The notes under the pieces are model-generated. The model saw only the letters and a list, made by a program, of their open reading frames with translations, made no database searches and was not told where the DNA came from. A DNA stretch of 64,000 bases from Candidatus Peribacteraceae bacterium. GTDB lineage: Bacteria; Patescibacteriota; Gracilibacteria; Peribacterales; Peribacteraceae. This document shows, piece after piece, positions 8,997-28,040 of this stretch (position 1 is the stretch's first letter; each line of letters starts with the position of its first letter). Both the position numbers and the translations under genes were made by a program. The stretch is from NCBI GenBank assembly GCA_028711345.1, contig JAQTSK010000002.1:228-64227 (forward strand), read 5' to 3'.

Positions 8997-9119
8997 TCAT
9001 CGCTCCGATTTCTTCTTCTTCCCCTCTGCGCGAATTTGCCGTCCACGCTTGACGGCATCGCCGTATGCTTTGATGACAGGATTCTTCGGATCCGGTGATG
9101 GGAGAGGAGTGCGCTTCAT
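8997..9119 (-). CDS. hypothetical 40-aa basic peptide coupled to the upstream kinase gene
   Basis: Own translation MKRTPLPSPDPKNPVIKAYGDAVKRGRQIRAEGKKKKSER. Its ATG overlaps the kinase TGA as ATGA (9119-9116). Too short for the track. Confidence 0.2.
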   Translation of the reverse strand: MKRTPLPSPDPKNPVIKAYGDAVKRGRQIRAEGKKKKSER

Positions 9120-9715
9120 GATGACTGAACGTCATTGGCCAGTTCATCAGTAGAGTACTGAATACTCTGCAAAAAGGCAACGAGCCGTGCATGATCCTGA
9201 AAGGAAATATCTGTAAACCGGATAACATCATCGCGATAGGTGCTTTCGTAGAGCTTGATCGCCACTTCCGGATGTTCCTTGGCAATCCAGAGTAATGTCT
9301 GTCGTGATCCTGCATGTGTTCGGTAGAAATGCTTCTCGTCGAATTGGCGTTTCCTCCCCAGGAATGCGTCAAAAGAACGTCCGATGTCGTCGGGAAATAC
9401 GGCAATGATGATCGGCTTCTTCTTCGCCTTTGCAATCTTTCGCATCTTGATGGTCGCACCTTCTATCGAGGAGAGAGTACTATCGAACACAATGCAATGT
9501 CGTTTTTTTAGGTACGTCTCCGCGAATTCGGTCTTTCCCGATGCGCTTCCGCCACAGAGCAAGATGACTTCATTGATGTCCTTGTTTTTCAGTGCTGTCT
9601 CGAATTGTTTGTCTGCAAGTCTCGCAGATTCCCGATGGAATTCTTGCGCTCTCTCCGGCATGTATCCTGCGATTTCTTTCTTCCAATCGTCGATGGAAAT
9701 ATAGGTGACGGACAT
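9116..9715 (-). CDS. zeta-toxin-like / AAA P-loop kinase
   Basis: Walker A LLCGGSASGKTEF. Size and layout resemble zeta-toxin family kinases. Start set at ATG 9715 (MSVTYISIDDW). Confidence 0.55.
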   Translation of the reverse strand: MSVTYISIDDWKKEIAGYMPERAQEFHRESARLADKQFETALKNKDINEVILLCGGSASGKTEFAETYLKKRHCIVFDSTLSSIEGATIKMRKIAKAKKKPIIIAVFPDDIGRSFDAFLGRKRQFDEKHFYRTHAGSRQTLLWIAKEHPEVAIKLYESTYRDDVIRFTDISFQDHARLVAFLQSIQYSTDELANDVQSS

Positions 9716-9854
9716 CGGGGAAAGTGTAGCATGAATGAGCGCCCGAAATGGTTTGCCACGCGAAGCGCAGCCCATGTGCAATTTTGCCCCACTTCGCACT
9801 CCGGGCTACGCGGGGTACACTTCGTTTCTTTGCTTTTGAAGAAAAGTGCTCAAC

Positions 9855-9901
9855 AAAAAAACGGGCGGCTTGCCACGCGAAGCTCCCCGCAGGGAGCGAA
9901 G
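9855..9901 (-). terminator. candidate displaced native ssrA terminator (hairpin + T7)
   Basis: On the minus strand, directly after the orphan tmRNA 3' fragment: CACTTCGC-TCCC..GGGA-GCTTCGCGTGG hairpin region, then CAAGCCGCCCG and TTTTTTT. Confidence 0.3.
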
Positions 9902-9917
9902 TGTGGTGGAGATGCCG
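9902..9917. repeat. attL core (orphan copy of the tmRNA 3' end)
   Basis: TGTGGTGGAGATGCCG, identical to 27639-27654. Confidence 0.7.
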
Positions 9918-10021
9918 TACCCGATTATTACTTGTGGAGATGTGAGTTTAACGAGCTGTAGAATTATTCGATATTTAAGCCAAATTGTAAGCATTAGTAT
10001 CCTGAGGAGTAAAATACGTGT

Positions 10022-11824: not shown

Positions 11825-11825
11825 T

Positions 11826-13610
11826 CTACTTATGATCGTTATTCATGCCATTCTTAAAGAGCTTCTTTCGAGCTTTTACGATGAGCTTATGCATATGTCT
11901 TCCAACGATCTTATATTTATATATTCGCTTCTTATAGCGCGGGTCGAGAGCTAGAAAATCATTGAGAGATATCAGTCTATCGCGATGTTCTAGGGTGTAA
12001 TCCGATAGCAACTTGTGGAATGGTATTCCCCTGTGAATTGAGTCTTCGAGAGCTAAAAGCTCATCCATTGTCATGGTTATAAGGTTCGGAATGCTTAGCC
12101 TACCCTTGGCCATATCACCACGACCTGTGTCCTGATCTGGCTGGAGCTTTGTCTTAAATTCACGAGCAAGAAACCAGGGATGTAATGCAGAATCGAGATG
12201 AGGATCTCGCACAAAAAGAATGGGGAAAATCCTATCTAAGTCTCGTGGGGCTATGCCATTTACGGATACATCTGTGGAAAGATTCTTAATCGCAGTGGCC
12301 AGTTGTTCTGCCCCCCAAGTATTAACGTACTTCTTCCTTAGCTCTTCTAAATACGCTGCATTATCTGTGCCGTATATCACGTTCAGATTCAAGAACGATG
12401 CCTTGATTTCGAGTATGGCTAGTTGCCGATCTAACTTAAGGCCGATGTCCACATCTCCTGACTGCTGAGGTCGAGACATTTCTACGCCTAGCTTGTTTAC
12501 ACGAGCGCAATATATCTTCTTAAAGAAGAAGTGAGTGTAATCCTCAAAGGCTGCTCCGTAGTATCCGATAAGTTCTTGTGCTGGCTTTTTTAGCTTTTTC
12601 CTAATGATGAAGATTGGCCCAGCGGCCGCTCTTTCTGCGAAGAAAAGAGAATCTAAGATGATACCTCTTCCATCTCTGATACGAAGAATGGGCCTATCAA
12701 GCATTACGCGGGCATCAAATGAACCCGCCTCGCTTAGGGTGGCAACATCGAGACGCTCACCCCAGAAGCCTTTTCGTAATTCTTCAATTGTCTGCGACTC
12801 AAATTCCAGATAAGTTCGAACTGCTGGCTTCATAGAATCCAACACTTCATTTCCTGCGCTGTTTATATCGAAAATGCCATTACTATTCTCTGGCTTAGCG
12901 GCAATCTCTGACAGCGTTTTAAGATAGAAATGCGAAACAAGAAAACTCTTGCAGATGTAGTAGTCATCGATCTCAATTCCAGTCGCTTTGCGAAAATCCT
13001 CTCTGAGGGTCGTATAGTGTTTTTCCAGATATTTCTTTCGACAGAATATGGAATGCCCAAACCCTACCCACATCATAGGGTTAATATGGCCTATATAGCT
13101 ACCCTCATGATTTCTGCGTAATGCAAGCATTAATAACTCCCTCCCTTCATCATCTACTGGCCTCGTCGTTATCTGAGCAAAATCTGTAGTATCTAGCCAA
13201 ATCTTATTAGCAATTAACATTGCCTTAGCAAAGGTCTGCCTGACATCTTGTTTTCTGAACGTTTCCCCGTCCCCTTCGCTATTCTTACACCACAGCAATA
13301 CCCATCTCATAAGCTCCAAAAGTCCAGCCCTCATACAGATCACACTCTTGTTAAAGCCCTCAGATTTTTTCCAAACCAGCTCACATTGCTCCTTTGTGAA
13401 GAACCATTGAAGTATTAGTTTCTGTGTTTCCCTACCGTGATTTTCGGGATCAAGTTCTGGGTTTGATACGAGGAGGTTTAGCCGAGCACACCAAATAAGA
13501 GCATCTGTAAGGCTTAAGGTTTGTAAGCACCGTCTTAGATTATCTATATCTGCACCAACTTCTAAAAATACATCTTCAACGCCTAAGAACGATATTACTT
13601 GCGACGTCAT
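11826..13610 (-). CDS. hypothetical PD-(D/E)xK nuclease-like protein
   Basis: ..YGAAFEDYTHF..SGDVDIGLKLDRQLAILEIKASF.. (12402-12458) fits the D..(D/E)xK restriction-endonuclease-like core. The N-terminal 350 aa have no motif I recognise. Confidence 0.6.
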   Translation of the reverse strand: MTSQVISFLGVEDVFLEVGADIDNLRRCLQTLSLTDALIWCARLNLLVSNPELDPENHGRETQKLILQWFFTKEQCELVWKKSEGFNKSVICMRAGLLELMRWVLLWCKNSEGDGETFRKQDVRQTFAKAMLIANKIWLDTTDFAQITTRPVDDEGRELLMLALRRNHEGSYIGHINPMMWVGFGHSIFCRKKYLEKHYTTLREDFRKATGIEIDDYYICKSFLVSHFYLKTLSEIAAKPENSNGIFDINSAGNEVLDSMKPAVRTYLEFESQTIEELRKGFWGERLDVATLSEAGSFDARVMLDRPILRIRDGRGIILDSLFFAERAAAGPIFIIRKKLKKPAQELIGYYGAAFEDYTHFFFKKIYCARVNKLGVEMSRPQQSGDVDIGLKLDRQLAILEIKASFLNLNVIYGTDNAAYLEELRKKYVNTWGAEQLATAIKNLSTDVSVNGIAPRDLDRIFPILFVRDPHLDSALHPWFLAREFKTKLQPDQDTGRGDMAKGRLSIPNLITMTMDELLALEDSIHRGIPFHKLLSDYTLEHRDRLISLNDFLALDPRYKKRIYKYKIVGRHMHKLIVKARKKLFKNGMNNDHK

Positions 13611-13706
13611 AACATGATTATTTTAGCTTTAAATTATTTTCACATAATGGGAAATTTTTTGTAGTGACCTAAGTATTCTGCTTACCCTACATCAAAAAGA
13701 GCACTT

Positions 13707-14660
13707 GTGGTACATTTCGGATACATGGAAATTGCAATGAAGATGAACGTGGCAGATCACCTGAATCGAACGTTTGAAGCTGCGAAGTGTAGGATTGTGC
13801 TTCAGCGGCTTTTTTCGCTAAACAGAAGTAACAACGGCTCCTTAACCTTCAAGTTTAATCCAGAAACAGATTCGCCGATTTATAAATCGGATACAGTCGA
13901 TTGCCTTCAATCTTTGGCTGATGATGGAATAATAGAACTTCCAAGTTTGGAGAAAAAGAGGCAACGAGTTGGAACGGTTACGATAAAAATTCCGCCTGAC
14001 TTTGATTCGAAGTATCAAGATGCAATAAGGAGATGGCCCCTTTTTCATGATGAACTCTCTTCTCATAAGCAGATGAATTTTGTGTACCAGCAGTTACAAA
14101 ACAAGAGTCGTTTCTTGGGAAAGCAGATTGTGGTCATCGGCAATGGAGACCTTGGAGATGGCAAGGAACTACTGCACATCAATCTGCATCGCGCTCTACT
14201 GTCACTGGAGGCAGATGGGAAAATCTCCATCCATTCCATTCAGGCTATACCTCCTGTTCACTGGGTAGAATTTCCAAACAGCAATCATCGCAAGAAGATG
14301 GTCTACGATTTATTGTACGAAGTGAATGTGCAGGGGAGCACACTCCGCGGCGATAACTACATGCTGGACATGAACAGACTTCTCATCACCTTCGACGACG
14401 GACACACGGCTTCATTCAAGGTTGGAACAGAGTCATACAGATTTTTTGCTCTGTTCGCGCAGGATGGCAAACGTTCAGTATCAAATGAGGAATTGGTATC
14501 CCTGCTGTCTTCAACAACGTATGCCTCTGAGCAGGATATTCGCGATGCGGCCAAAGGGATAAGGTTGAGAGTAAGGAGCAGGGTATTACATGCCAAGAGC
14601 GGCAGCGCTCATGACATCATCCGATATAAAAATCAGATGACCTCGCTCCGGGGAATGTAG
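13707..14660 (+). CDS. hypothetical protein with OmpR/PhoB-like winged-helix C-terminus
   Basis: C-terminal ..FKVGTESYRFFALFAQDGKRSVSNEELVSLL....EQDIRDAAKGIRLRV resembles trans_reg_C wHTH. The track start is GTG; ATG 13725 is an alternative. Confidence 0.45.
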   Translation: MVHFGYMEIAMKMNVADHLNRTFEAAKCRIVLQRLFSLNRSNNGSLTFKFNPETDSPIYKSDTVDCLQSLADDGIIELPSLEKKRQRVGTVTIKIPPDFDSKYQDAIRRWPLFHDELSSHKQMNFVYQQLQNKSRFLGKQIVVIGNGDLGDGKELLHINLHRALLSLEADGKISIHSIQAIPPVHWVEFPNSNHRKKMVYDLLYEVNVQGSTLRGDNYMLDMNRLLITFDDGHTASFKVGTESYRFFALFAQDGKRSVSNEELVSLLSSTTYASEQDIRDAAKGIRLRVRSRVLHAKSGSAHDIIRYKNQMTSLRGM

Positions 14661-14905
14661 TGGTAACTTTTTTGGTAACCGAGTACATAGACGCTTCTAC
14701 TGTTTGCAACTGGGCGTTGTTTTAGTCTGGAACAGTGCAGAAGCGCCAATCATCAAAGGTCACCCGTAAGTTCACTCCTTCGAGTGACTTTGACGCGGTC
14801 ATGTTGGAGATCGTGGAGCTGATTCTGAACTCTGGGCAGAACTCAGATTTAACCGCAGTTGATTCTGGGCGTCCGTAATTTCTCTTTTCTACTTTCTTAC
14901 CCAAT

Positions 14906-15226
14906 ATGTCTATGCATATTTACCCTCTAAAAGCTGGCATGATAATGGATTGGGATACTGAACTCTGTGAAGGCAATATCAAGTATTCAGATGTTGATTA
15001 CTTTCCTAGTTGTGAGTGGGGCCGCGAGATATATACAAATAGACTCTTCGAAAAATCACTGATTTTGCTCGATGAGGAAGATATCTGTGTGTTAGAGGAA
15101 GAATTAAAAGAAGGCTGTTGGGATGAACTCCCGGACTTAGAAAAGTCCCTGAAGGCAATGGTTGATTATGCAAGAAAGAATCCCACACCTGATGGGGATC
15201 ACAATTTTATTTGGATCAACATTTAG
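14906..15226 (+). CDS. hypothetical acidic protein
   Basis: 106-aa ORF in the AT-rich island segment, same orientation as the replication module. Confidence 0.4.
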   Translation: MSMHIYPLKAGMIMDWDTELCEGNIKYSDVDYFPSCEWGREIYTNRLFEKSLILLDEEDICVLEEELKEGCWDELPDLEKSLKAMVDYARKNPTPDGDHNFIWINI

Positions 15227-15247
15227 TACCTCCCCGCATTTCTTTCA

Positions 15248-15484
15248 ATGCTTATGACAACCTTCTCCACCAGCGATCTCTCCATTGCCTCCTATGCGAT
15301 AGCGACGGGTGCAAAGTTGCTCCGCCTTGATCGTTCACAGCCTCGGGCAGTCTTTGTGTTGGAATGTGGTCTGAGCGAGGCCGACATGGTGCATCGGTAC
15401 ATGAATCAGCCGGTGCTGGCGAAGGACTTTGCACTCGCGCAGACCCATCTTAAACACAAGCTTTTCTCCTCTGATCGCGATTAA
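15248..15484 (+). CDS. DUF5659-like small protein
   Basis: ..FSTSDLSIASYAIATGAKLLRLDRSQPRAVFVLE.. matches the pattern of DUF5659 proteins, which are common in phage/plasmid-like elements. Confidence 0.55.
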   Translation: MLMTTFSTSDLSIASYAIATGAKLLRLDRSQPRAVFVLECGLSEADMVHRYMNQPVLAKDFALAQTHLKHKLFSSDRD

Positions 15485-15513
15485 TTCCTGCTTATTCCTT
15501 TTCTATCATTAAA

Positions 15514-17829
15514 ATGGATAATCCAAATGATCTACTGATCCGTGCACTGAACTACCTTGAGATGGGCTGGCCTGTAATTCCGGTGAATCAGAACAAGCGG
15601 CCGCGAATCAGCTCATGGAAAGAGTACCAAGAGCGCATGCCTACTACTGAGGAGGTGACTCGGTGGTTCAATGATCCGGGTGCTGTGGGTATGGCACTGA
15701 TTACAGGGCGTCAATCGGGCACCGTTGTTTTGGATGTCGAAAAGGAAGGCCTAGATGAACTTCAGAGACTAGAAATTCCTCAGACTGTCGTTGCGGTAAG
15801 TGGTGGCGGTGGACGCCATATTTACTTCAAGCATCCGGGTTTTGAAGTGTCGAACATGACAAAGATGGATGGGGTTCCGATGGATATCCGAGGAGATGGG
15901 GGCTACATCATTCTCCCGCCATCGCTGCACGCTTCGGGCAATCATTACTTATGGGCAACCGGACCGGGAGACGTTGAGATTGCCGAAATGCCAACATGGC
16001 TCTTGAAAAGAGTACAAAAAACGGGACTTCCGACTTCCATAGCACCGAATGTCAGCAAGAAAACGAAATTTGATTTCGGCGCGAACGTTCCAGAAGGCTC
16101 CAGAAACACCGAGGCTGCGAAAGCAATCGGAGCAATATTGTGTCGGTTGGAAGAGCAGGAGTTTGATTCCAAGGGGTGGTCACTGGCTGACCAATGGAAT
16201 ACCGCCCACTGTGAACCGCCACTGGAGGAGCAAGAACTGCGCGTCATATTTGAAAGTATCAAGAAGTCTCATATTGAACAGCTACATGACCTATTTGCTG
16301 AGAAAAAGAAACCCAAGGAATCAAAGGCCAAGCGGCTGCTAAATTACGTTGATATTGCAGGCGCTGAGCTGTTTCACAATCAGTCCAATGAACCGTTAAT
16401 GCGAGTCACGGTAAATGGTCATCAGGAAATATTCCGTTGTTCGCATAGAACCGAACGCTGCAAGCGGTACCTGACAAAGTTGTTCTGGGACAACGAAAAA
16501 GCATCGATTAAAGTTAGCGACTTGCAGGAGGCCGCAGATCTACTGGGTGCTCGAGCGTTCCACGATTCCCCAATGAGGGAACTTTCGAACAGAGTCGCTC
16601 GTCACGATGGAGCAATTTTCTATGATTTATCTGATAAAGAATGGAGAGCGGTGCGGATCACTCAGAACGGATGGGAAGTTCTTGCTAACCCTCCGATACT
16701 CTTTGCGCGGGAAGAGCATCAATTGCCTCAGGTCGAACCACTAAAGAGTGGTGGTAATGCCAAGAAGATCCTGGAATATATCAATATTGCTAAGCCCGAG
16801 CATAAGCTCCTGTATCTGGTACAAATCATCTCCTATTTTATCCCCAATATTCCTCATCCCGTAGCGGTATTTCACGGCAAGCCGGGATCAGCCAAGAGTA
16901 CGGCGACGAAAATGACCAAAATGCTGGTAGACCCCTCACAGATGGAAGCATTCACGTTGTCGCGGGATGAAGCGCAAATGGTACAACAACTTTCCCATCA
17001 CTATCTCGGTGCATACGACAATATTGACTATCTGAATCCGGAACAGTCCGATGCCCTTTGCCGTGCCGTAACCGGTGGCGGTTTCTCAAAACGAGCTCTT
17101 TACTCCGATGACGACGATAAGATCTACCACTACCGCAGGTGCATCGTCCTGAACGGCGTAAGCCAAGCCAGCACCAGAACCGACCTTCTGGATCGGAGCA
17201 CCCTCTTTGAGCTTGAGAGGATCCCTGATGATGTTCGCCTTACTGAGCGTGAATTATGGGAAAATTTCAGGAAAGATTTACCCGTTATTCTCGGAGGAGT
17301 TTTTGATGTGATTGCGGAAGCAATGCGGCTGCAACCTACGGTCAAATTAGTCCAACATCCACGTATGGCTGATTTCGCGGAGTGGGGATGCGCTATCGCA
17401 CTCGCCCTTGGCTACACCCAGGAAGAATTCGAGTCGTCGATTAACCTGAATAAGAAGGATCAGCACGAAACTGTTCTGAGCGAGGATGCTGTTGCCTCGT
17501 CTCTACTCAAATTTATGGCTAATCATGGTGAATCATGGCAGGGAACAGCAACAGATCTCCTGATTCACCTAGAAGACAATGGTCTGCGAGGCAGACGCCT
17601 GCCCACTGCGAATGCTCTTTCAAGACGCCTAAACCTCATTGGCTACAACTTGGAAGCCGCAGGCATCAAATTTGAGCGGGGATATAAAGACAACCAGCGC
17701 CTGATTATTCTCACAAAAATACCGTCGGTATCGTCGGAATCAATTCCAGAGAAAAGTGACGACAAGAACCGTACTGACGATACCGACGATGAAAATGGTG
17801 CACTCAAGCGACCTCGGGTTGTTTACTAA
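15514..17829 (+). CDS. bifunctional primase-polymerase (Prim-Pol) / PriCT / P-loop helicase replication protein
   Basis: N-terminal GWPVIPV..KRP...W..GMALITG....VVLDVE..GGGGRHIYF..DIRGDGGYIILPPS. PriCT-like EGSRNTEA...EEQELRVIFESI. Walker A GKPGSAKST. Confidence 0.85.
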   Translation: MDNPNDLLIRALNYLEMGWPVIPVNQNKRPRISSWKEYQERMPTTEEVTRWFNDPGAVGMALITGRQSGTVVLDVEKEGLDELQRLEIPQTVVAVSGGGGRHIYFKHPGFEVSNMTKMDGVPMDIRGDGGYIILPPSLHASGNHYLWATGPGDVEIAEMPTWLLKRVQKTGLPTSIAPNVSKKTKFDFGANVPEGSRNTEAAKAIGAILCRLEEQEFDSKGWSLADQWNTAHCEPPLEEQELRVIFESIKKSHIEQLHDLFAEKKKPKESKAKRLLNYVDIAGAELFHNQSNEPLMRVTVNGHQEIFRCSHRTERCKRYLTKLFWDNEKASIKVSDLQEAADLLGARAFHDSPMRELSNRVARHDGAIFYDLSDKEWRAVRITQNGWEVLANPPILFAREEHQLPQVEPLKSGGNAKKILEYINIAKPEHKLLYLVQIISYFIPNIPHPVAVFHGKPGSAKSTATKMTKMLVDPSQMEAFTLSRDEAQMVQQLSHHYLGAYDNIDYLNPEQSDALCRAVTGGGFSKRALYSDDDDKIYHYRRCIVLNGVSQASTRTDLLDRSTLFELERIPDDVRLTERELWENFRKDLPVILGGVFDVIAEAMRLQPTVKLVQHPRMADFAEWGCAIALALGYTQEEFESSINLNKKDQHETVLSEDAVASSLLKFMANHGESWQGTATDLLIHLEDNGLRGRRLPTANALSRRLNLIGYNLEAAGIKFERGYKDNQRLIILTKIPSVSSESIPEKSDDKNRTDDTDDENGALKRPRVVY

Positions 17830-17952
17830 AATGTTTCCTAGTAATACTGAAATGCACGAATCGACGACAATCCCCCCCCTTTAGGAAAAACGCTTGAATT
17901 GCCAATATAGGCTGTATAATACGAGTTAAAGCCTCTTTCGGCCAATATTAAG

Positions 17953-18183
17953 ATGACGAATCCTTCTCCAAGGCCTCCCCCGATGGAGGGGCTTCTTGAA
18001 CGCTTGCGTCTTATCCGTGGCGAAGCCGAACGGCTCTACTACCTATCAGATATTTTAGGTCGGCAGGGACAGCGCGAAGCGAGCTACAGACAGAAGCGTG
18101 CCGGAGACTTCGCCATGCAGGAGTGGAAGAGGGTGAATGCCCAGTACCGCGCACTGTGGAAGAAACAACGATGTAAGCGCTAG
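17953..18183 (+). CDS. hypothetical small helical protein
   Basis: 76-aa ORF directly upstream of the tyrosine recombinase. Bracketed by GCCAATAT motifs. Confidence 0.35.
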   Translation: MTNPSPRPPPMEGLLERLRLIRGEAERLYYLSDILGRQGQREASYRQKRAGDFAMQEWKRVNAQYRALWKKQRCKR

Positions 18184-18229
18184 TAGAAGCCAATATTGAC
18201 GTTGACTATCTGATGTTCTGAAATAATAA

Positions 18230-19186
18230 TTGTACATATTTTATGAATTTCCCCTCATTTATATGCACAAAGCTCTGCCTAAAGCCCTGGAAACACCAAA
18301 ATACTCACAAAATAATGTTTCGACGGTCGTCTCAGGGGACTTGGAGCGTGTGGTCGCCGCTCTGTTACAGCGGGACGTGAGCAGGAATACCCAGCTCGCC
18401 CTCCGCTCCGACCTCAAGTGTTTTCTTCAGTGGTACGCACAGAAGAACGGAGAGGCGTTCAGATTCCAGCGGGTCGTCATGCGGGACATCACCGATTTCA
18501 GGGATGATCTGAGCAAGACCCTGTCTCCGGCGACCACGAACCGCAGACTCGTGAACGTGCGCCTGTTCCTCCAAGAGGCCGTGGAACTCGACGTGATCCC
18601 CAAGAATCCGGCAAAAAGGGTGAAACAAGTGGCAACGCAGTCTCTCGCTTCCAAGGGACTGACCAAGCAGGAGGCACGGAGATTGATGAAGGAGGTCGAG
18701 ATACGGGCGAATCTTAGGGACTTGGCGGCTGTGAACCTGATGTTGATGGCCGGACTGCGAGCGGGAGAGGTAGTGGCGTTGACTGTGCAGGACGTAGAGA
18801 TGAGCGAACGCAGGGGGACACTGACGATACGGCGTGCCAAGGGGAACAAGACAAGGAGAGTCCCCATCCATCGTGCCCTACGGGCTATCTTGGAGGCGTA
18901 CATCGACCACTACAAGCCAACGGACAAGCTCCTGCTCGGAGAGCGCGGAGCCATTCAGCAGCTTGCGCTCAATGAGATTGTGCGAAAGTACGCGAAGCTC
19001 GCGGGGGTCACGGCGACACCACACACGCTGAGGCATTCATGGGCGTATCAGTATCTCGAACAAAACCCCGGCGACATCGTAGGGCTGGCACAGCTCTTGG
19101 GGCATTCATCCATTAGTACAACGCAAATTTACGTCCAGCATCGGATGGAACAATTGGAGCAGAGGGTGGAGGCGGTGAGCTTCTGA
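18230..19186 (+). CDS. tyrosine recombinase (XerC/D-phage integrase family)
   Basis: SAM-like N-domain. Catalytic region ..GLRAGEV..HTLRHSWAYQYLE..LLGHSSISTTQIYVQH. The start may be ATG 18263. Confidence 0.85.
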   Translation: MYIFYEFPLIYMHKALPKALETPKYSQNNVSTVVSGDLERVVAALLQRDVSRNTQLALRSDLKCFLQWYAQKNGEAFRFQRVVMRDITDFRDDLSKTLSPATTNRRLVNVRLFLQEAVELDVIPKNPAKRVKQVATQSLASKGLTKQEARRLMKEVEIRANLRDLAAVNLMLMAGLRAGEVVALTVQDVEMSERRGTLTIRRAKGNKTRRVPIHRALRAILEAYIDHYKPTDKLLLGERGAIQQLALNEIVRKYAKLAGVTATPHTLRHSWAYQYLEQNPGDIVGLAQLLGHSSISTTQIYVQHRMEQLEQRVEAVSF

Positions 19187-19295
19187 AGGTTCCTCATCAA
19201 AAGTGCGAATCCCTCGACACCAAGGACACACGACCATGCCGCTTCCATGCTACAAAGCGTTGACGTTCACAGATGAACACGAAGAGCGATCCTAC

Positions 19296-20420
19296 CTACA
19301 GAATGCTCACGTCGAGCAACTGCTTCACTGCCCCGACCACCTTCTTCTTTTCGACGCCGAGGAGAGATGCGACCGTAGTTTCCATTTCCTGACGTGCATT
19401 CTTCACTTCCTTTTTTCGTTGCTTGGGATCTTCGCCTGGTTTTTCTTGTCTGCCAAAGACCGCATGGTACTTCTCCACTGCTTGTTGCACTTTGGCGCGG
19501 ACAACTGCTGAGACCTCGGTGGGTGCTGACGTTTGTGGGCGTGGCTGCTCGGCTGCGGGAGCGACGAGCGGTGTTGTCACTGCCTTCACTGTCGTAGGTA
19601 TAGGAGCAGGCGGAGTTTTGACGGAAACCGGAGGAGTGGGGGCTGTTGGCGCTACGGCTTGCGGTTTGGGTGCTACAGATTTGGGGAGTGTCACCGGGGT
19701 CGGCAGTGTTGAGAGCAGGACACCGGGAAGTTGGCCTCTCAGTTTCTGCAAAAACTCATGGGCTCGCGCTTCGCCACCGTTAACAGCTGCAACGAAGAGC
19801 GCGACTTGCTCACTCTTGCGTGTGGCCAAGTAGAAAATGACCTGATCGGAGTACCCCACGCGCCTCAGCATCTCCCACTCGGTTTGCTGCAACGTGAACA
19901 TTTCCGCTGCCAGTGCTTTATCCAGTGCAGCAAAATCAGAGAAGCGCATTTTGGCTATGTCCGCCGCAACCGGAGAAGGGGGCAGCACTATCTCATCCTT
20001 CTTGCTCGCTTGCGCTGCCAATGGTTGCAGTTGCGTCTGCTCACGACCAGCCGTGTCACCTTTGGCTATGATCGGCGGTGGGGTGGGCGCCGCAGGCGTG
20101 GATACGGGAGAAGGAGCGGTCTTCTGAGGTAAAGGCGGCTTAGAGGTCATTGCAGATGGACGCTTCTGCCCCGGGACATGCGCGGGTCCTTGATGCTGAG
20201 CAGGAGTCGACTTGCCACCTTCATGTTGCCCACCCGATTTCTGCTCCGGTTTCCTTGCCACGGGTTGCCCTTTCTGCGCTGCGGCGACTGTGGCAATGGC
20301 GTCTTTCGTGTCAGTGCGCATGGCATCCGCTGGCTTGGGCGTTGACGCCATGGGTGCCACGCGTGTTTCTTCTCGCGGTCTTTCGGTTTCCCTGCGGATA
20401 GCGGTGTGGTGCTCGCACAT
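19296..20420 (-). CDS. hypothetical Pro/Ala-rich protein with a small central globular segment
   Basis: Long P/A/T/K low-complexity arms flank ..[45 protein letters not shown]... First ATG at 20420, 11 nt after the giant ORF stop. Confidence 0.5.
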   Translation of the reverse strand: MCEHHTAIRRETERPREETRVAPMASTPKPADAMRTDTKDAIATVAAAQKGQPVARKPEQKSGGQHEGGKSTPAQHQGPAHVPGQKRPSAMTSKPPLPQKTAPSPVSTPAAPTPPPIIAKGDTAGREQTQLQPLAAQASKKDEIVLPPSPVAADIAKMRFSDFAALDKALAAEMFTLQQTEWEMLRRVGYSDQVIFYLATRKSEQVALFVAAVNGGEARAHEFLQKLRGQLPGVLLSTLPTPVTLPKSVAPKPQAVAPTAPTPPVSVKTPPAPIPTTVKAVTTPLVAPAAEQPRPQTSAPTEVSAVVRAKVQQAVEKYHAVFGRQEKPGEDPKQRKKEVKNARQEMETTVASLLGVEKKKVVGAVKQLLDVSIL

Positions 20421-20431
20421 AGTGAGAAAGG

Positions 20432-23400
20432 TTAGAGAATGAGAGCTTGAGCGTGGTTGCGCCAATCCTCTCGGGTATTGAGGACAGGTTGATTAGATTG
20501 TACCGCTAAACGGAAAGTGTCAATATTATCGCGGACGGCATGGAAGAGTGTGTAGCTGTTGGGATCCCGTGCCCACTGATTAATCGCATCGAAGTACAAA
20601 TTTTGCGTGGGGATGACTGCCAATTCTGCGTGTCCTAGGAAGGTATGAGCGACCTGCGGATTGCCTGCACCGTACACTCCGGTATACGGGTTATAAGTCC
20701 AGGGGGCATCCAGGAGGTGTGAGTGATCTCCTAGGATTTCTTCGTGCCGACGGATGTACTCCTTTCCTGCTTCTGCAAATGGTCCGTTGTGTTCGGCATG
20801 CATGCATGCCGTGTGCACGGCTTGAATGATGCGGGCGTCAGCCGGTTCCAGCACACCCAACACATCAGTCCGCCCGGTACCCCAGCTGAAGGGGAGCGAG
20901 GCGCGTGCGCCCTGCGCGTCGTAACTGATGATTGCCCCGTTTTCTACGCCCGATCCGACCGTCGTCTGGAAATCCTCCGGCACGTAGCGGATCGCTCTAC
21001 TCGCGGCCAACAGGTAACTGGTGGCAAGCACACCGCAATTCCTGAGGCTTAAGCGTCCTGGGCAGCAAACCTGCAATTCCGGTTGCTCGCGGACGCCATG
21101 CCTCTGATTCAAGACTCTGCCTGCATTGAGTACCCACACGCGCAATTCAAACTCTTCTGTAGTAGGAACCGGGGGCAGATTCGCCGATTTCAGCGCATGC
21201 AGCAGGCGGAATCCGGTGCTGTTCCACCCTAATGCCGCGTTGATGACGTTGATTTGCGCGGCACCCATTTCCGAATGAGTGTGAGCCTTCCCTCCGATGG
21301 GAGACATGCCTTTGACGGTTTCTCGACTTTCACGAATGCTCTGGGCAAAGGGAGGAATGTGATCGCTGATCAGTGTGCGCATTTCTTTCCTGGTGAGTGT
21401 GCCTGCGCGCAGTGCTTGCTGTAGATCTCGCCGCACGGGCAGCGTCAGCGCATGGAGCGAATGTTCTGATGGAATAGGGAGGTCGGATGTATCGATCGTA
21501 TCAGCTTTGTCCGCCCCATCCCCATTGAACGGCATTCCAGTGGGTGAGAGATGCGAGGCGAGTGCCACCCTGCCCATTTGACGTCTGAGAAATGTGGAGA
21601 GGAGGAAGACGTAGCAGCGGAAAGAGTCTTCCGTACTCCGCAAGCTTGCCGCTTCCATTTCCGTGGGTGCGGTCTTCACCGAAATACCGAACGATTCCGT
21701 GGGGAACGACTGGACATCGGCGGCGATGGCGGCCAATTCATTGACTTGAAACTCCTCTGCCAGAATGTGATGCACCACCTGACGCGCACCATCATCCGTG
21801 AGCCCGGCCATCTGCCGCAGCAATGCGGAGACTACCTTCATCTGCTTCTGCACCTCCGTACGCACCTCCGGTGCCACTGTCTTCGGTCGGTGCCTGTCTT
21901 CTTCCTCATCTTCGTCCTCTCCCCAGTTGCGGACGAGGAGCTGTCCGATCTGCGCGACCAAGTGAGCAATGGACTCATGCAGAATCGGGTCACCGGTACT
22001 GATATGGCGGTCTGTGCACCAGTCCACGATGGTATGGGCATCGTCCGGACCGACGCATGCGGCCAATTTTCCGGTCAGTTCTTGTGCTTTGGCTGACTCG
22101 ACTTGTCGCTCGACTCGCTCTTCCGTCCATGGCAGCGTACTGATGACGTTGGGCGTGAGTTTCGCATCGGAATTCATCCCCGCACGCACAATCGCAGCGA
22201 TGTCACCGGTGGCAAAATGCTGCTGTGCACCGGATTGCAGGATTGTTGCCACGCGGTCCAATGTCCTGCGCAGCTCATGCAGGCGGTACGATTGCAGACT
22301 CGTTTGGCACTGACCCAAGACCTCCGTCACTTCCTGATGAAACTGCTGTCGGACTTCCTCCACAAAACGGGCACGCGCTTCCGCACTGTCAGCTTCTAGC
22401 TGCTCCTTACGTCTCTCGTTCTGCCGCTTCAGGCGGTAGGAGTTCGGGGGGCTGTACCCCAATGCTTTCTCATTCATTGCAAGATGGTCGATTTCAAATT
22501 GGCATGCAGCGATCTGGTCCTGCCTCTCGCGCTCCGCAACCTCAGGGAGGCGGGTGGCGTCACTGCGCGGGTCATCTTGGAACTTCGCTTGGACGGCCTC
22601 CGTCACCTCAAGATGGATCGGCGCAAAGACCCATGCCAGGATTGTCTTCACATCCTCCTCAGCAAGGAGGTCAAGTCCGTGGAGGTCTAAGAGCCGCGAT
22701 AGGGTGCGGTAGGGTTGCTCTTCCGCAAGGCGCAGTTCTTCACGGTCCGAGAATCGTGGCCCCGTCCCATTGGGGATCACCTGTGTTTCATCGATGTCGT
22801 CTCTGAAGCGCGTCTCCAGTTCGCGCAGCGTATGTTCATCGTCATAGACGGGTTCTCCCTGGTGCGGATACTGGCGCTCCAACCGGTCCAGTACGTCGAT
22901 GAGCCACGCGGGCGGTTGCAGGGGATGTTCTACCCGCGTCGCGCAATATCGGGCGTAGATCGCAGCGAGCAGGGGACCCCGGTAGGATCCCAAGCGGGAG
23001 AATGCAGCATGGAATTGTTGCAGATCCGTGAGAGATGAGGGCGAGCGCTCTGGGGGGGGGCCGGAGGGAGGCGGGTAGTCGCGGAGGGACAATGCGTGCT
23101 CCGAGGCAATCCCCGGCTTGCCGTGAACTGGCAGGCGTAGACGCTCCGGGAGCGGTCGATCGATACTGGTGAGGAGTTTCACTACTTCCTGTGGCGTTGC
23201 GTGGAGGGGGTCCGCGCGCTCCTGGACTCGATGTCTGCGGTCTCCATATGGATCATCATCCTCCTGTGTAACTCTTCCTTTGGATTGATCGAATGCATCT
23301 GCAAGTGCCGTGAGGCAGGGCTTCTGGAAGCTGGTCTGGGGCGTGGTGGTCTCCAAGATGCCCATCATCGGAGATACGGGCTTCTGTTTTTCTAGGAAAA

Positions 23401-25588
23401 TGAGGAATTCCTCCAGAGCAGCCGAACGCCGCTTCGTCGTTGTCTGCTCTATGAGTGCCAGAACATGGCGGAGGACATTGGTCGCTCGCAAGGGATTACC
23501 GATGCCATACCACTCCGTCACGCGCACGGTGCAATCGATCGCGCGTTCCTGTCCGATCCCCTCCATTGCTCCCAGCTGATATCCAGCGCGCTTGTAGGTT
23601 TCCAGTGCGTACTCGTACAGCGGTCCAGCGCGTCTGGCCATGGCCAGCGAGAGTGCGCACCCTTCTTGATTCGGCTCCACAGCGATACCGTGGCGGTAGC
23701 GAAACAAAGCGCGTCCCATTTCTTGCTCCTGCGGCCAGGTGGTGGGGATATGTTTGTGGTTCACGTATTCCTGTCTGGTGAATTCATCCTCTTCCCTCTC
23801 TTCGTCGTAATCATAAGTATTGTAAAAACCAGCACGCCTGGCCCGATACTCCATTTTTCTGATCTCCCGCAATTCACCACGAAGGGAACTGATTGCATGT
23901 TGCAAGGCATGTGCTTTCCAATCCTCAACACGACTCTGTATTTCAACTAATTCTCTTTCATCCACTAATCCCAATCCATCCACATCGACAATGCGTTGCG
24001 TGAGCTCCTTCGTGCATTGATGTCTTTCGGGATTGCAGTAGCGATCCATGACCATGGTACAACGTTGCGGGTTGACTCCTTGTTCCGATAAGCACGGAAG
24101 GTCGCGGAGAAAGGCGATTACAAAGTCCTTGCGAATATCCTCGATCGAGATCCAGGCGCCATGTTCACGCAGGAACGTGATGGCCTGCGGGTTGATTTCT
24201 CCTAGGGCTTCCTGTGCAGTTGTGAGGAGCTCCCACGTGTGCGCATCGGTTCCCTCGGGAGGGGTATTGGTTTCAGCCGGATCGAACGTCTGCTCGGCCA
24301 GACCAGCCTTCTCATTAAACCACCAAGGCAATTTTCCATTGCCGTAGATCGCCTGCACCAGATCAATGCCGTAGAGCACAGCGGCAGAGAGATCACCCGC
24401 AGCGGCGACTTTGCGAATGAGTGTAGTGAGCGATGCCATCCGCAATCCCTGTCTTAGGAACGCAGGCAGAGAGTGTAGAAAATCAATGATCCGTTCCTGT
24501 TCCAGATCTGTGCGAGTCAGCGTGTGATCAATGACGAATCCCACAGCTTCCGGCGTTAAATCGCGCATTTGTTCCTGTAACTGGCGGATGACTGCGCATT
24601 GTTCCGGTGGAAGGTGCCTCATGCGAAAGGGTGACTTTTCTTCTTGCGCGTTGCATACCAAGGGTGCGGTATGCTCCAAGCATTGCGCGATAAAGTCCGG
24701 CGGGAAGAACATGTGTCGGCGCATGGCAAAAGCCCCGCCCGCCATGGTCTCCGTACACTCCTTGGCCCACTGAAGCGGTGGTAAGCGGTGTGGCTGCGTT
24801 TTGCGGTAATGAACCGGCGCACCGAACTGAGCGTAGAACGAAGGCCAACCCATCCACGTTGCCTGCGCGCGCGCCTGTCCACCCTGCTTGAGGCGCAATT
24901 GTTCTAAACTGTAGAGCACAGCGATTTCCTGCTGTAGGATGGGGCCATTTCTGTACCGGCCGTACTGCAATTCAATTGTGTTATCCCCGCGCCATGTTAT
25001 GTACCCAGGTGACAAGGGAGCGCGTCGATCGATTACGCGTCGTTGCGTTGCGATCAGTTCTTCGGAGTTATCGTGGGCAAGGTAACGGACACTGTCGTAC
25101 TGGTTGACGTACGCGCGTCCGAAGTTGAATCCGGTATTGGGATTGCCGTGCTGCGATTTGCGGATGTTGTGGTCCGGCGGCAGTCTGAGGAGGAGCTTAC
25201 TGGTGCTCCCTGGTACATCCTCCGCCAAGCGGTACGTGAACCGGTCCGGGAGATCCGGTTGGGGGTAGGCGCTGCGTTCTCCGCTCCTGCCGTTCATCAT
25301 TTCCAAAAGCTCCCACTCTTCCTGTTCCTCGGGTGTCCGTTGCTGTCGCTCTTCCCCGCATTCTTCGCGCTCTCTATCATGCTCAGCCCAGTAGAGGTCC
25401 GTATTTCTGCGCCGTTGCTGCTCCTCGGGATCGTCATCTTCATCGCGGTAGCGGCTGCTCCTGAGCCCTGGCAGACCAGTGAGATGCATAGATATTAAAA
25501 TTGAAAGAGTGGAGCATTTTAACAAAAGTGACAAATAATGCAAATCATTATCTGATGTATCTTCAGCGGGGAGGGTATGGAACCTCAT
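20432..25588 (-). CDS. orphan giant protein (1718 aa)
   Basis: An uninterrupted 5.2-kb ORF cannot arise by chance. No P-loop, HExxH or other motif I recognise. Acidic, helical-looking N-terminal two thirds and a denser C-terminal 350 aa. The start is uncertain (25588 or 25489). Confidence 0.7.
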   Translation of the reverse strand: MRFHTLPAEDTSDNDLHYLSLLLKCSTLSILISMHLTGLPGLRSSRYRDEDDDPEEQQRRRNTDLYWAEHDREREECGEERQQRTPEEQEEWELLEMMNGRSGERSAYPQPDLPDRFTYRLAEDVPGSTSKLLLRLPPDHNIRKSQHGNPNTGFNFGRAYVNQYDSVRYLAHDNSEELIATQRRVIDRRAPLSPGYITWRGDNTIELQYGRYRNGPILQQEIAVLYSLEQLRLKQGGQARAQATWMGWPSFYAQFGAPVHYRKTQPHRLPPLQWAKECTETMAGGAFAMRRHMFFPPDFIAQCLEHTAPLVCNAQEEKSPFRMRHLPPEQCAVIRQLQEQMRDLTPEAVGFVIDHTLTRTDLEQERIIDFLHSLPAFLRQGLRMASLTTLIRKVAAAGDLSAAVLYGIDLVQAIYGNGKLPWWFNEKAGLAEQTFDPAETNTPPEGTDAHTWELLTTAQEALGEINPQAITFLREHGAWISIEDIRKDFVIAFLRDLPCLSEQGVNPQRCTMVMDRYCNPERHQCTKELTQRIVDVDGLGLVDERELVEIQSRVEDWKAHALQHAISSLRGELREIRKMEYRARRAGFYNTYDYDEEREEDEFTRQEYVNHKHIPTTWPQEQEMGRALFRYRHGIAVEPNQEGCALSLAMARRAGPLYEYALETYKRAGYQLGAMEGIGQERAIDCTVRVTEWYGIGNPLRATNVLRHVLALIEQTTTKRRSAALEEFLIFLEKQKPVSPMMGILETTTPQTSFQKPCLTALADAFDQSKGRVTQEDDDPYGDRRHRVQERADPLHATPQEVVKLLTSIDRPLPERLRLPVHGKPGIASEHALSLRDYPPPSGPPPERSPSSLTDLQQFHAAFSRLGSYRGPLLAAIYARYCATRVEHPLQPPAWLIDVLDRLERQYPHQGEPVYDDEHTLRELETRFRDDIDETQVIPNGTGPRFSDREELRLAEEQPYRTLSRLLDLHGLDLLAEEDVKTILAWVFAPIHLEVTEAVQAKFQDDPRSDATRLPEVAERERQDQIAACQFEIDHLAMNEKALGYSPPNSYRLKRQNERRKEQLEADSAEARARFVEEVRQQFHQEVTEVLGQCQTSLQSYRLHELRRTLDRVATILQSGAQQHFATGDIAAIVRAGMNSDAKLTPNVISTLPWTEERVERQVESAKAQELTGKLAACVGPDDAHTIVDWCTDRHISTGDPILHESIAHLVAQIGQLLVRNWGEDEDEEEDRHRPKTVAPEVRTEVQKQMKVVSALLRQMAGLTDDGARQVVHHILAEEFQVNELAAIAADVQSFPTESFGISVKTAPTEMEAASLRSTEDSFRCYVFLLSTFLRRQMGRVALASHLSPTGMPFNGDGADKADTIDTSDLPIPSEHSLHALTLPVRRDLQQALRAGTLTRKEMRTLISDHIPPFAQSIRESRETVKGMSPIGGKAHTHSEMGAAQINVINAALGWNSTGFRLLHALKSANLPPVPTTEEFELRVWVLNAGRVLNQRHGVREQPELQVCCPGRLSLRNCGVLATSYLLAASRAIRYVPEDFQTTVGSGVENGAIISYDAQGARASLPFSWGTGRTDVLGVLEPADARIIQAVHTACMHAEHNGPFAEAGKEYIRRHEEILGDHSHLLDAPWTYNPYTGVYGAGNPQVAHTFLGHAELAVIPTQNLYFDAINQWARDPNSYTLFHAVRDNIDTFRLAVQSNQPVLNTREDWRNHAQALIL

Positions 25589-26021
25589 TCATAGCACGAT
25601 CTTTTGATTCTTGAGCATCAGCCTGTTGTTGAGGTATCCGATTAGTTTGCGCATCTTTGTCGTTGTTCGGTTAGGGGCAAGTTTACAGGCCGCGCGATTT
25701 TCCTATTCCATAAACCGCATTAGCACCCCCTACACCAACACTGTCCCGCTTCGACTACGTTGACACTTGAAACGGATAAATTCAGCACTAGGGGCTGCTA
25801 ATTAGCGTGTAGGGGTAGGTATGTAGACGGGACAGAAACAATGAGGCGATTCCACCCAGTTTTTGAGTTTTGATGGAATGTTGCGGGTGACGAGCATCGC
25901 GGGACTCGGATGTAGGAGATATATTTCTCCGATCACAATACAAACCAGCTTCCTTTCATTTGTCAGCATGAAATACCAGCCATGAACAGAAAACTCCAAA
26001 ACTCCAAAAGTTTCCAATATA

Positions 26022-27860
26022 ATGGCTTACATGAGAACAACTCGAACAGACGCAAGGAAGCCGCGGCGCGTTGCTCAGTACATTCGCGTTTCGACTTTGG
26101 AGCAGGCGAAAGAGGGGAACAGCCTTCAGGGACAGCAGGACAGCTTGGCGAAGTACATCGAATCCAATGCAGACAGCGAGAACAATTGGGTCACCAGCAA
26201 GACGCTCGTTTACGTTGATGATGGATACTCCGGTGCGGACGATGAGCGACCCGAGTTCAAGCGCATGATGCGTGACGCCAAAGAACGGAAGTTCGACGTG
26301 CTACTTGTTTGGAAGATTGATCGGCTGTTCCGCAACACGCTCCTGCTTCTGGAGACGATCAAGGAGCTGAAGAAATATGGCGTGGAGTTCGCCTCGAAGA
26401 ACGAGCTGATCGACACGTCCAAGTCCACAGGCAGATTCCTCCTGACGATTCTTGGCGCCATTGCCGAGATGGAGCGCGAGACCATCCGCGAGCGCACAAT
26501 CATGGGCAAGATTACGAGCGCAAAGAACGGAAATTACGTCGGAGGAAAGTACCCGCCCTTCGGTTATGACGTGGATAAGCACGGCAAGATGGTCATCAAC
26601 AAAGACGAGGCAAAAATCGTACTTGAAATATTCACGATGCTCGTAGAAGAGAAGAAGACCCAAACACAGATTGCCAAGATACTCACTGCCCGCAGAGTTC
26701 CCACGAAGTCAGACCGCGTGGGAGTGGAGCGTCGGACGAATCAGGTGGGTTTTTGGGGTCAGGCTGCGATCGCTGCGATTTTACTGAAGGACGAATATGC
26801 AGGAACGTACTACTACGGCAAGCGTGAGACCTACCTGAACGAGAACGAAGACAAGCGCCAGCGGGAACGCCCCCGTGAGGAATGGATTCCTCTGCCGTGC
26901 CCCGAGATCATCCCGAAACCCATGTTCGACAAGGCGCGACTGATTGCGCGTGAGAACGAGCAATATTCCATTCGTGCCTCGGATCATGTCTACCTGCTCC
27001 GCAGCAAAGTCTACTGCGGCGAATGCGGCGGCAGATACCAAGGCTATCCCAAGAAGAAAAAGGGCATCGTGTACTTCAATTACCATTGCAGCCGGAAGAA
27101 TCCGGGCAAGAGTGAGAAGCCGTGCTTGAACAAAGAGATGTCCGAAAAGAAGCTGGATGTCATCGTATGGAAGACAATCGATGAGCTGCTCAGTGATCCC
27201 AAAGCAACGCTCAAGGCGTTCGATACCAAGATGCGAGAAGAGTCGAAGGCTGCCGAGTACCAGTCTCAGATTAAAGATTATCAAGATGAGCTGGATGAGA
27301 AGGACAAGGAGCTGGGACGCTTGGTGGCTGCCATGAAGCGAGGGAAGATGTCCGATGCGATCTACGACAATGAGGTGGACACGACCAATACCGAGATGGC
27401 GACCATCCGTACCGAAATTGCCCGACTCGGGAATCTCCTTTCCACAGAGCTGGAGCGAGAAGAGCTGAAGAAGTCACTGGCGAGACTTGCGACCGAATAT
27501 CGCAAGAAATACGGCAAAATTGACCGGAAGACACAGGAAGTGATCATCCGAAAGCTTGTAAACAAAGTGGTTATCCACGCTTCGGGCAAAATCACTGTGG
27601 ATTACGCAATCCCGACAATTCAAAATCGGGTATTTAAATGTGGTGGAGATGCCGGGAGTCGAACCCGGGTCCAACGTGTACGCCGACGGTCAGTACGATC
27701 ATGGTCTTCTCAGTTCTCTCATCCCCTGAGAGAAGAACAGAGAAAGGGTGAGAGTGATGACGCTGTATTCAGGAGTCCGTCACGTCAGTCGGAATCCAAC
27801 CCCGCTAGTGACGTTTCACCCGTCCAGCGAGGATCAACGGGGAAACGTGGTCCGAAGTGA
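26022..27860 (+). CDS. large serine recombinase (integrase); last 68 codons are antisense ssrA
   Basis: Resolvase catalytic domain VAQYIRVSTLEQ..DDGYSG..RPEF, recombinase domain, zinc ribbon CGECGG..YHCSRK, coiled-coil. The ORF reads through the att core into the tmRNA gene. Confidence 0.85.
   Translation: MAYMRTTRTDARKPRRVAQYIRVSTLEQAKEGNSLQGQQDSLAKYIESNADSENNWVTSKTLVYVDDGYSGADDERPEFKRMMRDAKERKFDVLLVWKIDRLFRNTLLLLETIKELKKYGVEFASKNELIDTSKSTGRFLLTILGAIAEMERETIRERTIMGKITSAKNGNYVGGKYPPFGYDVDKHGKMVINKDEAKIVLEIFTMLVEEKKTQTQIAKILTARRVPTKSDRVGVERRTNQVGFWGQAAIAAILLKDEYAGTYYYGKRETYLNENEDKRQRERPREEWIPLPCPEIIPKPMFDKARLIARENEQYSIRASDHVYLLRSKVYCGECGGRYQGYPKKKKGIVYFNYHCSRKNPGKSEKPCLNKEMSEKKLDVIVWKTIDELLSDPKATLKAFDTKMREESKAAEYQSQIKDYQDELDEKDKELGRLVAAMKRGKMSDAIYDNEVDTTNTEMATIRTEIARLGNLLSTELEREELKKSLARLATEYRKKYGKIDRKTQEVIIRKLVNKVVIHASGKITVDYAIPTIQNRVFKCGGDAGSRTRVQRVRRRSVRSWSSQFSHPLREEQRKGESDDAVFRSPSRQSESNPASDVSPVQRGSTGKRGPK
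27639..27654. repeat. attR core within the ssrA 3' end
   Basis: TGTGGTGGAGATGCCG. Its reverse complement is the CGGCATCTCCACCA acceptor/CCA end of the tmRNA plus 2 nt. Confidence 0.7.
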
Positions 27861-28040
27861 ATCAGACCTTAGGCAGTGACGAGAGAGGGCAAGCGAACAG
27901 AGTTCACGAGGTCCTCCACGTATGCCATGAAATTGCTTTTGGCAATTATGGTTTGCTCCAAGTGGGTAACGGGAACCAGAGCAATCCCGGATCGAGACGC
28001 AGTCGACGCATTGTCACGCTGTCGAAAGCCTGTCATCCCC
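27641..28040 (-). ncRNA. ssrA: tmRNA (transfer-messenger RNA)
   Basis: 5' GGGGATGACAGGCTTTCGACAGCG.. and 3' ..GGACCCGGGTTCGACTCCCGGCATCTCCACCA. The acceptor stem GGGGATG/CATCTCC carries the G3:U alanine identity pair. Internal tag frame ends ..LVTA-TAA at 27869-27871. Confidence 0.9.

Follow-up and report, generated by a model that had tools for sequence, protein, structure and literature searches.

A serine integrase gene that runs through its own attachment site and ends inside the host gene entered by its element raises the question of which C-terminus the enzyme is built to carry. In this study, we addressed that question for a stretch of 64,000 nucleotides (nt), hereafter the window, from a groundwater Candidatus Peribacteraceae bacterium of the candidate phyla radiation (CPR; contig JAQTSK010000002.1, positions 228 to 64,227). 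Here the open reading frame (ORF) of a large serine recombinase (LSR) gene, int, occupies positions 26022-27860 of the plus strand and, in the integrated state (the 'IntX' form), encodes 612 amino acids (aa). The original prediction held that this ORF is free of stops up to the core of the right attachment site, that the core encodes the residues CGGDA, that 68 codons of antisense ssrA follow, and that on a circularized element the same frame would continue into 9918-9961 and stop after 14 codons, giving a tail also visible at the end of the ORF at 9605-9961. All of these coordinates were borne out: CGGDA corresponds to codons 540-544, a scripted join of 27654 to 9918 yields a 558-codon ORF ending in CGGDA-VPDYYLWRCEFNEL with TAG at 9959-9961, and the ORF at 9605-9961 ends in this tail. 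Taken as a whole, the locus is quite probably best explained as an LSR island at ssrA that has attP inside int and whose integrase loses its tail on integration.

The int product has Pfam matches to Resolvase (PF00239, 1.4e-38, residues 18-171), Recombinase (PF07508, 1.5e-15) and Zn_ribbon_recom (PF13408, 5.6e-10). The nucleophile motif Y-x-R-x-S is present as YIRVST, with S24 nearly invariant in the homologue alignment, and the zinc-ribbon cysteines C332, C335, C356 and C368 are invariant in that alignment. The best full-length relative in the PDB is SprA of SPbeta (9dxh; SprA residues 62-511 aligned), and TP901-1 Int is the top structural match for the catalytic domain alone. Judged by its catalytic domain, its Recombinase domain and its zinc beta-ribbon with an embedded coiled coil, Int is an LSR. 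The ORF is full length and stop-free and aligns end to end with its homologues. In an AlphaFold2 (AF2) model of the chimeric, excised-form protein of 558 aa (mean predicted local distance difference test score, pLDDT, 86.8), long helices span residues 375-495, the last confident strands lie at 513-518 and 524-531, and the folded body ends at about residue 531-533. Model and homologue alignment together delimit a folded, conserved body of residues 1 to ~533 (26022-27620, plus strand), comprising the catalytic, recombinase, zinc-ribbon and coiled-coil parts; residues 535-546, CGGDA included, form a linker with pLDDT below 50.

Downstream, int converges on an intact transfer-messenger RNA (tmRNA) gene, ssrA (27641-28040, minus strand; ARAGORN; Rfam RF00023, 106.6 bits), which it overlaps by 220 nt. 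The core of attR is a 16-nt identity block at 27639-27654, made up of the last 14 nt of ssrA, CCA included, plus 2 nt and coding for C-G-G-D-A. An exact copy of this repeat, TGTGGTGGAGATGCCG, lies at 9902-9917 as an orphan ssrA 3' end and forms the core of attL; the inner 13 nt occur at two sites only in the 1.77-Mb assembly. Next to attL, at 9838-9901 on the minus strand, lies the displaced native 3' flank of ssrA (the B arm), with two hairpins and a U7 run (fold of -20.1 kcal/mol). In a search of 101 family genomes, the same hairpin flank was found to adjoin an uninterrupted tmRNA 3' end in four (G791, G708, G829 and G527), and attB rebuilt from attL (left side) and attR (right side) equals the empty sites of these four genomes. 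Because the empty sites match the reconstructed attB, the borders at 9918-27638 are confirmed by comparison, beyond the repeat alone.

The reconstructed attP reads AATCGGGTA-N22-TACCCGATT, with perfect 9-bp arms and 22 nt between them. The P-arm repeat, AATCGGGTA (27624-27632, plus strand), also encodes N-R-V of Int and is the perfect reverse complement of TACCCGATT at 9918-9926, the repeat within the P' arm (9917-9961, plus strand), which carries the 14 codons and the TAG and is conserved at the protein level in nine other P' arms. A sister island in genome G401 has an attP of equal geometry, AATCAGTTA-N22-TAACTGATT, with three compensatory changes. The 9+22+9-nt dyad is centred between G27643 and T27644, from which we infer crossover at the dinucleotide GT (27643-27644; the AC of the tmRNA 3' end, ..CCACCA). 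This predicted GT falls inside the minimal identity block TGGTGGAGATG common to all att copies found. As a short (~40-50 bp) dyad with a central non-palindromic dinucleotide, attP fits the LSR type, the crossover itself being predicted. Given three sister loci and four uninterrupted attB sites, the geometry that places attP within int is more than chance.

What the integrated gene encodes beyond the core depends on the host. The sister loci were fetched with their DNA (L001, GCA_020632295.1; L004, GCA_964460475.1; L005, a groundwater metagenome); in all three, int converges on the tmRNA 3' end, its ORF crosses the core, and its stop is an antisense T-loop TGA two codons past the core (..GCC GGG AGT/ACT/AAT TGA). 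An alignment with homologues, proposed with the original prediction as a way of seeing where conservation ends, was run: the ten closest (56-71% identity; 519-577 aa, most 539-552; one with a source name, Candidatus Peribacteria) all keep ..GGDAG, and the integrated tails beyond it vary, with either one further residue (S, T or N) and a stop or an antisense T-arm read-through of differing length. The window frame is open to 27860 because the T-loop of its host is UUCGA, not UUCAA, which places a CGA codon at 27660-27662 (plus strand) where L001, L004 and L005 have the stop TGA. Homologues in UUCGA hosts read on too, for 35 aa in the complete ORF P0006 and for at least 14 aa in the cut-off ORF P0009; both T-loop types are present among the tmRNA genes collected, with UUCAA somewhat commoner. 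Integrated-form tails range from 2 to 68 residues and have nothing in common beyond the sequence that the tmRNA dictates. We regard them as host-derived and unselected, and the 68 codons and stop of the window (27654-27860, plus strand) as a host accident.

The excised-form tail behaves differently. We found the attL of sister islands (on G401 contig 2 and, in two copies, in G402) and obtained more attL sites by scanning metagenomes for the core followed by the start of the P' arm. The independent excised-form tails thus recovered are VTDYYIYCLEV, VTDYYIYCIDV, ITDYYILCMEV, ITDYYIYCLEV, VTDYYIFYLEL, ITDYYIYCLEA, VTDYYLCCIEI and VTDYYIFCMEV, each directly followed by a stop, together with one longer tail, VTDYYICNIEVKK.... 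The window tail, VPDYYLWRCEF, aligns to these relatives without gaps and has three additional residues (NEL); the family consensus is [VI]TDYY[IL]xC[LIM]E[V] and a stop, with a length of 11-14 residues. Computed on the codons not fixed by the search pattern, mean pairwise diversity at the first, second and third codon positions is 0.22, 0.19 and 0.55, and the Nei-Gojobori ratio of nonsynonymous to synonymous differences per site (pN/pS) is 0.20 in the int frame and 1.27 and 0.78 in the other two. Synonymous exchanges occur at leucine (CTA/TTG) and glutamate (GAA/GAG), the stop interchanges among TAA, TAG and TGA at a constant position, and similarity ceases two bases beyond it. Since the left flanks of the tail-bearing attL sites are unrelated to each other, an integrated-state ORF cannot account for the pattern. 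The most economical interpretation is translation of the P' arm as the int terminus on a circular element, which makes the attP-spanning ORF of 558 codons the native gene, as far as these comparisons reach, and the 612-aa product an artefact of the integrated state. The predicted tail swap hence survives as a sequence-level prediction, and gains an excised tail that is under protein-level purifying selection; the 68-codon tail, the other half of the predicted exchange, does not survive as a feature of the system.

Some candidates were set aside along the way. Antisense coding of the P' arm was rejected: within 8 codons a stop interrupts the sole antisense frame that shares the wobble position, and none of the minus-strand ORFs of at least 90 aa lies over 9918-9961. 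A class-wide search for the core followed by RTA found the pattern in 3 of 401 genomes, one of which (G703, L125) was set aside with an unrelated right flank. Three GC-rich metagenome matches (L111, L118 and L122) were discarded as chance, and no attL was found for the L005 island within 10 kb upstream.

Several observations weigh against the explanation favoured here. The tail statistics, pN/pS of 0.20 among them, come from 8 codons in 9 related, non-independent sequences, and codons 1-3, plus two bases of codon 4, were preset by the search pattern used to find the P' arms. There is overlap between the predicted P' half-site and tail codons 1-5, where conservation is partly at the level of DNA. 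Several of the P' arms belong to int-less relic arrays beside ssrA, which requires that selection acted in active ancestors. In G402 the dyad is imperfect, with agreement at only 6 of 9 positions between the resident int's P arm and the P' arms nearby. AF2 draws the Int tail as a strand (residues 548-555), with a pLDDT for linker and tail of only 44-51, and a docking site for it is unsupported. Finally, an end of the GGDA-VTDYY type was absent from a collection of 5.8 billion proteins, a query with the chimeric C-terminus returned integrated forms only, and the P'-arm pattern was unmatched in viral contigs.

There are other ways of explaining the locus. The swap could be real in the DNA yet neutral, a by-product of attP being packed against the end of int, with the P' arm conserved as a half-site or as the promoter of the first cargo gene. 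This would suit an Int fold that ends about 6 codons before the core, the low confidence of AF2 in linker and tail, and the tolerance of integrated tails of 2 to 68 aa in intact-looking genes; the inverted repeat also spans tail codons 1-4, a promoter-like match (TGGAGA..TAGAAT, 9935-9964) overlaps the tail, and McMurdie et al., writing on a comparable system discussed below, list neutrality as a 'trivial explanation' (PMC3146451). A DNA site or promoter, however, would not yield a three-fold excess of third-position changes or the synonymous CTA/TTG and GAA/GAG exchanges, and it leaves a pN/pS of 0.20 in one frame only and interchangeable stops at a constant position unexplained, such that we find neutrality unlikely, although it is the strongest of the competing views.

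It is less probable still that the island is a fixed, dead remnant whose run-on ORF marks a decaying integrase gene, with no current excised state. The failure to detect the excised form in the protein collection and the viral contigs is what such a remnant would give, many related att sites are int-less relics, and 1 kb to the left there is an older att copy, now degenerate; against this stand an int gene that is full length, stop-free and alignable from end to end, an exact core repeat and two perfect attP dyad arms. Two Logan contigs with int of the G401 type (L002, SRR14234115; L003, SRR14234114) end 10 and 7 nt past the int stop, ~30 nt into sequence shared with attB, as an assembly-graph fork at the core with k=31 would give; this is only a hint that occupied and empty sites may coexist in these samples. 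That the island was placed at ssrA by its own tyrosine recombinase (18230-19186), with the LSR at the island end by chance, seems very improbable. A gene of the Phage_integrase family does exist in the island, and the Islander paper had only tyrosine integrases as known targeters of tRNA and tmRNA genes (tDNAs). At every sister locus, though, it is the LSR gene that adjoins ssrA, in constant register; the genes called in L126 over the 10 kb upstream of int include none with a recorded Phage_integrase match; attP is a ~40-bp dyad centred in a short core, an LSR-type site; and the repeat is just 16 nt long, lies at the extreme 3' end, and its core encodes the GGDA of Int in all homologues.

Comparison across these loci demonstrates the anatomy and borders of the island, and shows that its layout is family-wide and that the excised-form tail is under purifying selection. 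For the mechanism, we propose that an integrative element of ~17.7 kb was inserted by its own LSR into the only tmRNA gene of this Peribacteraceae host, at the 3'-terminal ACCA region, with attP inside the 3' end of int. The circle would encode a complete enzyme of 558 codons, composed of the body (~1-533), a flexible linker that includes CGGDA, and the P'-arm tail VPDYYLWRCEF-NEL. On integration, the tail would be stranded at attL, 17.7 kb from the rest of the gene, and the body would be joined to antisense ssrA. An in-frame TGA and an end of the type ..GGDAG plus S, T or N would then come, in most hosts, from the antisense T-loop (UUCAA, read TTGA); in the window host, with CGA in that place, the frame would run on through 68 meaningless codons. 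The lost tail may contribute to the activity or stability of Int, and the integrated copy would produce an altered, probably weakened enzyme. Transcription of ssrA, whose terminator has been displaced by 17.7 kb, may run antisense into int and damp it further. Of these steps, the one that draws support from sequence is the complete enzyme on the circle; an effect of tail clipping on activity or stability, and antisense damping, are suggested by analogy with Mx8 IntP/IntX and with integration-dependent immunity.

A bolder idea, to which we give only tentative credence, is that the tail constitutes a built-in directionality or dosage switch. Only the circle would encode a complete, integration-proficient (or rapidly degraded) enzyme, the clipped resident copy could not promote further attP x attB recombination or would be silenced, and the host T-loop would supply the stop. 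Such a switch might be an alternative or complement to recombination directionality factors across a broad clade of LSRs that target tRNA or tmRNA genes, in CPR as well as other phyla. The excised tail ends in a hydrophobic-acidic-hydrophobic series (..CLEV, ..CEFNEL), unlike the local tmRNA tags (..LVTA, ..AFA, ..VAA).

Further copies of the core were noticed in relatives. On metagenome contigs L116, L117, L119 and L120 (also L112, L113 and L121), a core and P' arm lie 1.2-3.7 kb from the tmRNA gene with no integrase between, some as tandem pairs 1009 bp apart, and there too a hairpin flank follows the tmRNA; sites of this kind appear to be arrays of int-less relics or satellites at ssrA. Three core copies stand at the left end of the G402 island (L022, G402 contig 10, 7921-8468), two of them with P' arms and 408 bp apart, and the third (7921) with an int-like end, GGTAAATAA, before it and GC-rich, unrelated sequence after it. 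Within the window P' arm, TGTGGAGATGTG at positions 9933-9944, 27 nt beyond the core (TGGTGGAGATGCC), repeats that core imperfectly; sister P' arms have TGGAGGTGTAAAG at a similar place in a different frame. The window copy is overlapped by the promoter-like match (9935-9964) and could be either an accessory DNA motif or a chance occurrence.

To the left of attL, separated from it by 997 bp, a second, degenerate copy of hairpin and core (GTGTGGCGGAGATGATA) lies in 8867-8940 and is followed by ACGAAAAAGTTGGAACC, which resembles GTGGTGGACATGATACGTAAAAGTT in genome G786 (L131). The 1-kb segment between the two left copies (8921-9901) carries an AAA_33-like ORF (9116-9799, minus strand) and looks like the relic of an older ssrA insertion by another type of island. 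The hairpin flank itself (~45 nt, GGCTTGCCACGCGAAGC-hairpin-GCGAAGTG; 9867-9909 in the window; loci L128-L135) is a dispersed family repeat, matched in 50 of the 101 family genomes with up to 10 copies per genome. Copies immediately follow the 3' ends of the tmRNA gene and a tRNA-Ala gene, and its stems co-vary (CTCCC/GGGAG, CTCGC/GCGAG, CTCTC/GAGAG); it is probably a shared terminator or processing element of t(m)RNA genes. We had also considered the left flank of attL as part of a mini-element and dropped this idea when the family search identified it as the B arm, the native t(m)RNA 3' hairpin that recurs widely.

The island body (9918-27638, ~17.7 kb; ORF list and Pfam) encodes a 771-aa Prim-Pol (15514-17829), the XerC/D-like tyrosine recombinase already mentioned, and an ORF of 1718 aa at 20432-25588 with no Pfam match; two further ORFs of 600 aa are likewise without a match. 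With Prim-Pol and a tyrosine recombinase as cargo, the element may replicate in plasmid-like circular form, with resolution of dimers. On contig 21 of the same genome (L009, 1501-3198), a second LSR gene, whose product has 33% identity to Int, converges on tRNA-His, its ORF running 58 nt into the antisense of that gene; no second copy of the tRNA-His 3' end was found in the assembly. More distant LSRs of the same phylum run 22-94 nt into antisense tRNA-His (that of contig 21), -Lys, -Met, -Val and -Arg, and the layout in which int crosses att is, by these examples, widespread in CPR.

How does this locus compare with known systems? In domain architecture, the window Int is like SPbeta SprA and the integrases of A118/LI, TP901-1, Bxb1 and phiC31. 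To our knowledge, the attP sites of these have not been reported to lie inside int, and their targets are protein-coding or intergenic sites, not tmRNA or tRNA ends.

A closer parallel exists in Dehalococcoides. The original prediction was made unaware of any LSR described with this layout at ssrA, and in this it was mistaken: McMurdie et al. (2011, BMC Genomics 12:287, PMC3146451) had described ssrA-specific islands whose serine recombinase, DsiB, always has its ORF across the att site, and suggested that full function of the enzyme may require the circularized element (PMC3146451). Both systems have an LSR (~540 aa for DsiB), an island at the 3' end of ssrA, a short direct repeat and an int gene convergent on ssrA; in both, the int ORF overlaps att and terminates beyond the island or within ssrA. 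They differ in host (Chloroflexi versus the CPR Peribacteraceae), in the repeat (20 nt versus 16 nt here) and in the crossover, which lies mid-T-loop for DsiB and is predicted at ACCA here. The Dehalococcoides islands carry a six-gene module that includes DsiB, the small serine recombinase DsiA, RecF-like and ParB proteins, and Mom with an embedded tRNA-like gene; the window island ORFs have no such Pfam matches to a DsiA/RecF/ParB/Mom module, and there is no small resolvase beside int. Upstream of int in L005 (L126, 9476-9961), a Resolvase gene of 161 aa directly adjoins it, recalling the DsiA/DsiB and CcrA/CcrB pairs, and none is present in the window. Our comparison with DsiB is by published description, and no Dehalococcoides record was among the named matches listed in the homologue search and in an alignment scan of genome contigs (mostly distant resolvases).

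For a change of Int that depends on integration, the precedent is myxophage Mx8 IntP/IntX (Tojo et al. 1996, as cited in PMC4383910). There, too, attP lies inside int, such that integration alters the C-terminus of Int, which for the window is predicted from sequence; Mx8 differs in having a tyrosine recombinase, another target and another scale of replaced segment, and functional data exist for Mx8 alone. In mycobacteriophages such as BPs, attP lies within a coding sequence and the viral and prophage C-termini differ (Broussard and Hatfull 2013, PMC3694055); in this integration-dependent immunity, integration removes a C-terminal degradation tag (PMC3694055). The split gene in BPs is a repressor, and its integrase is a tyrosine recombinase; a degron role for the window tail is a lead only.

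According to the 2014 Islander paper, no serine integrase was known to target tDNAs, and the window adds evidence to the contrary, for serine integrases at tRNA and tmRNA ends. As a class, tDNA-targeting serine integrases are under-recognized, yet not new. The two details that this locus adds are the origin of the usual integrated-form stop in the T-loop and protein-level selection on the excised-form tail. Programs that call islands need to permit int to cross att, and the native Int should be annotated with 558 aa, not 612 aa. Serine integrases are major tools of genome engineering, and the prevailing view is that separate directionality factors alone determine their directionality. An LSR clade whose gene is cut by its own reaction could hold a second, self-contained layer of control.

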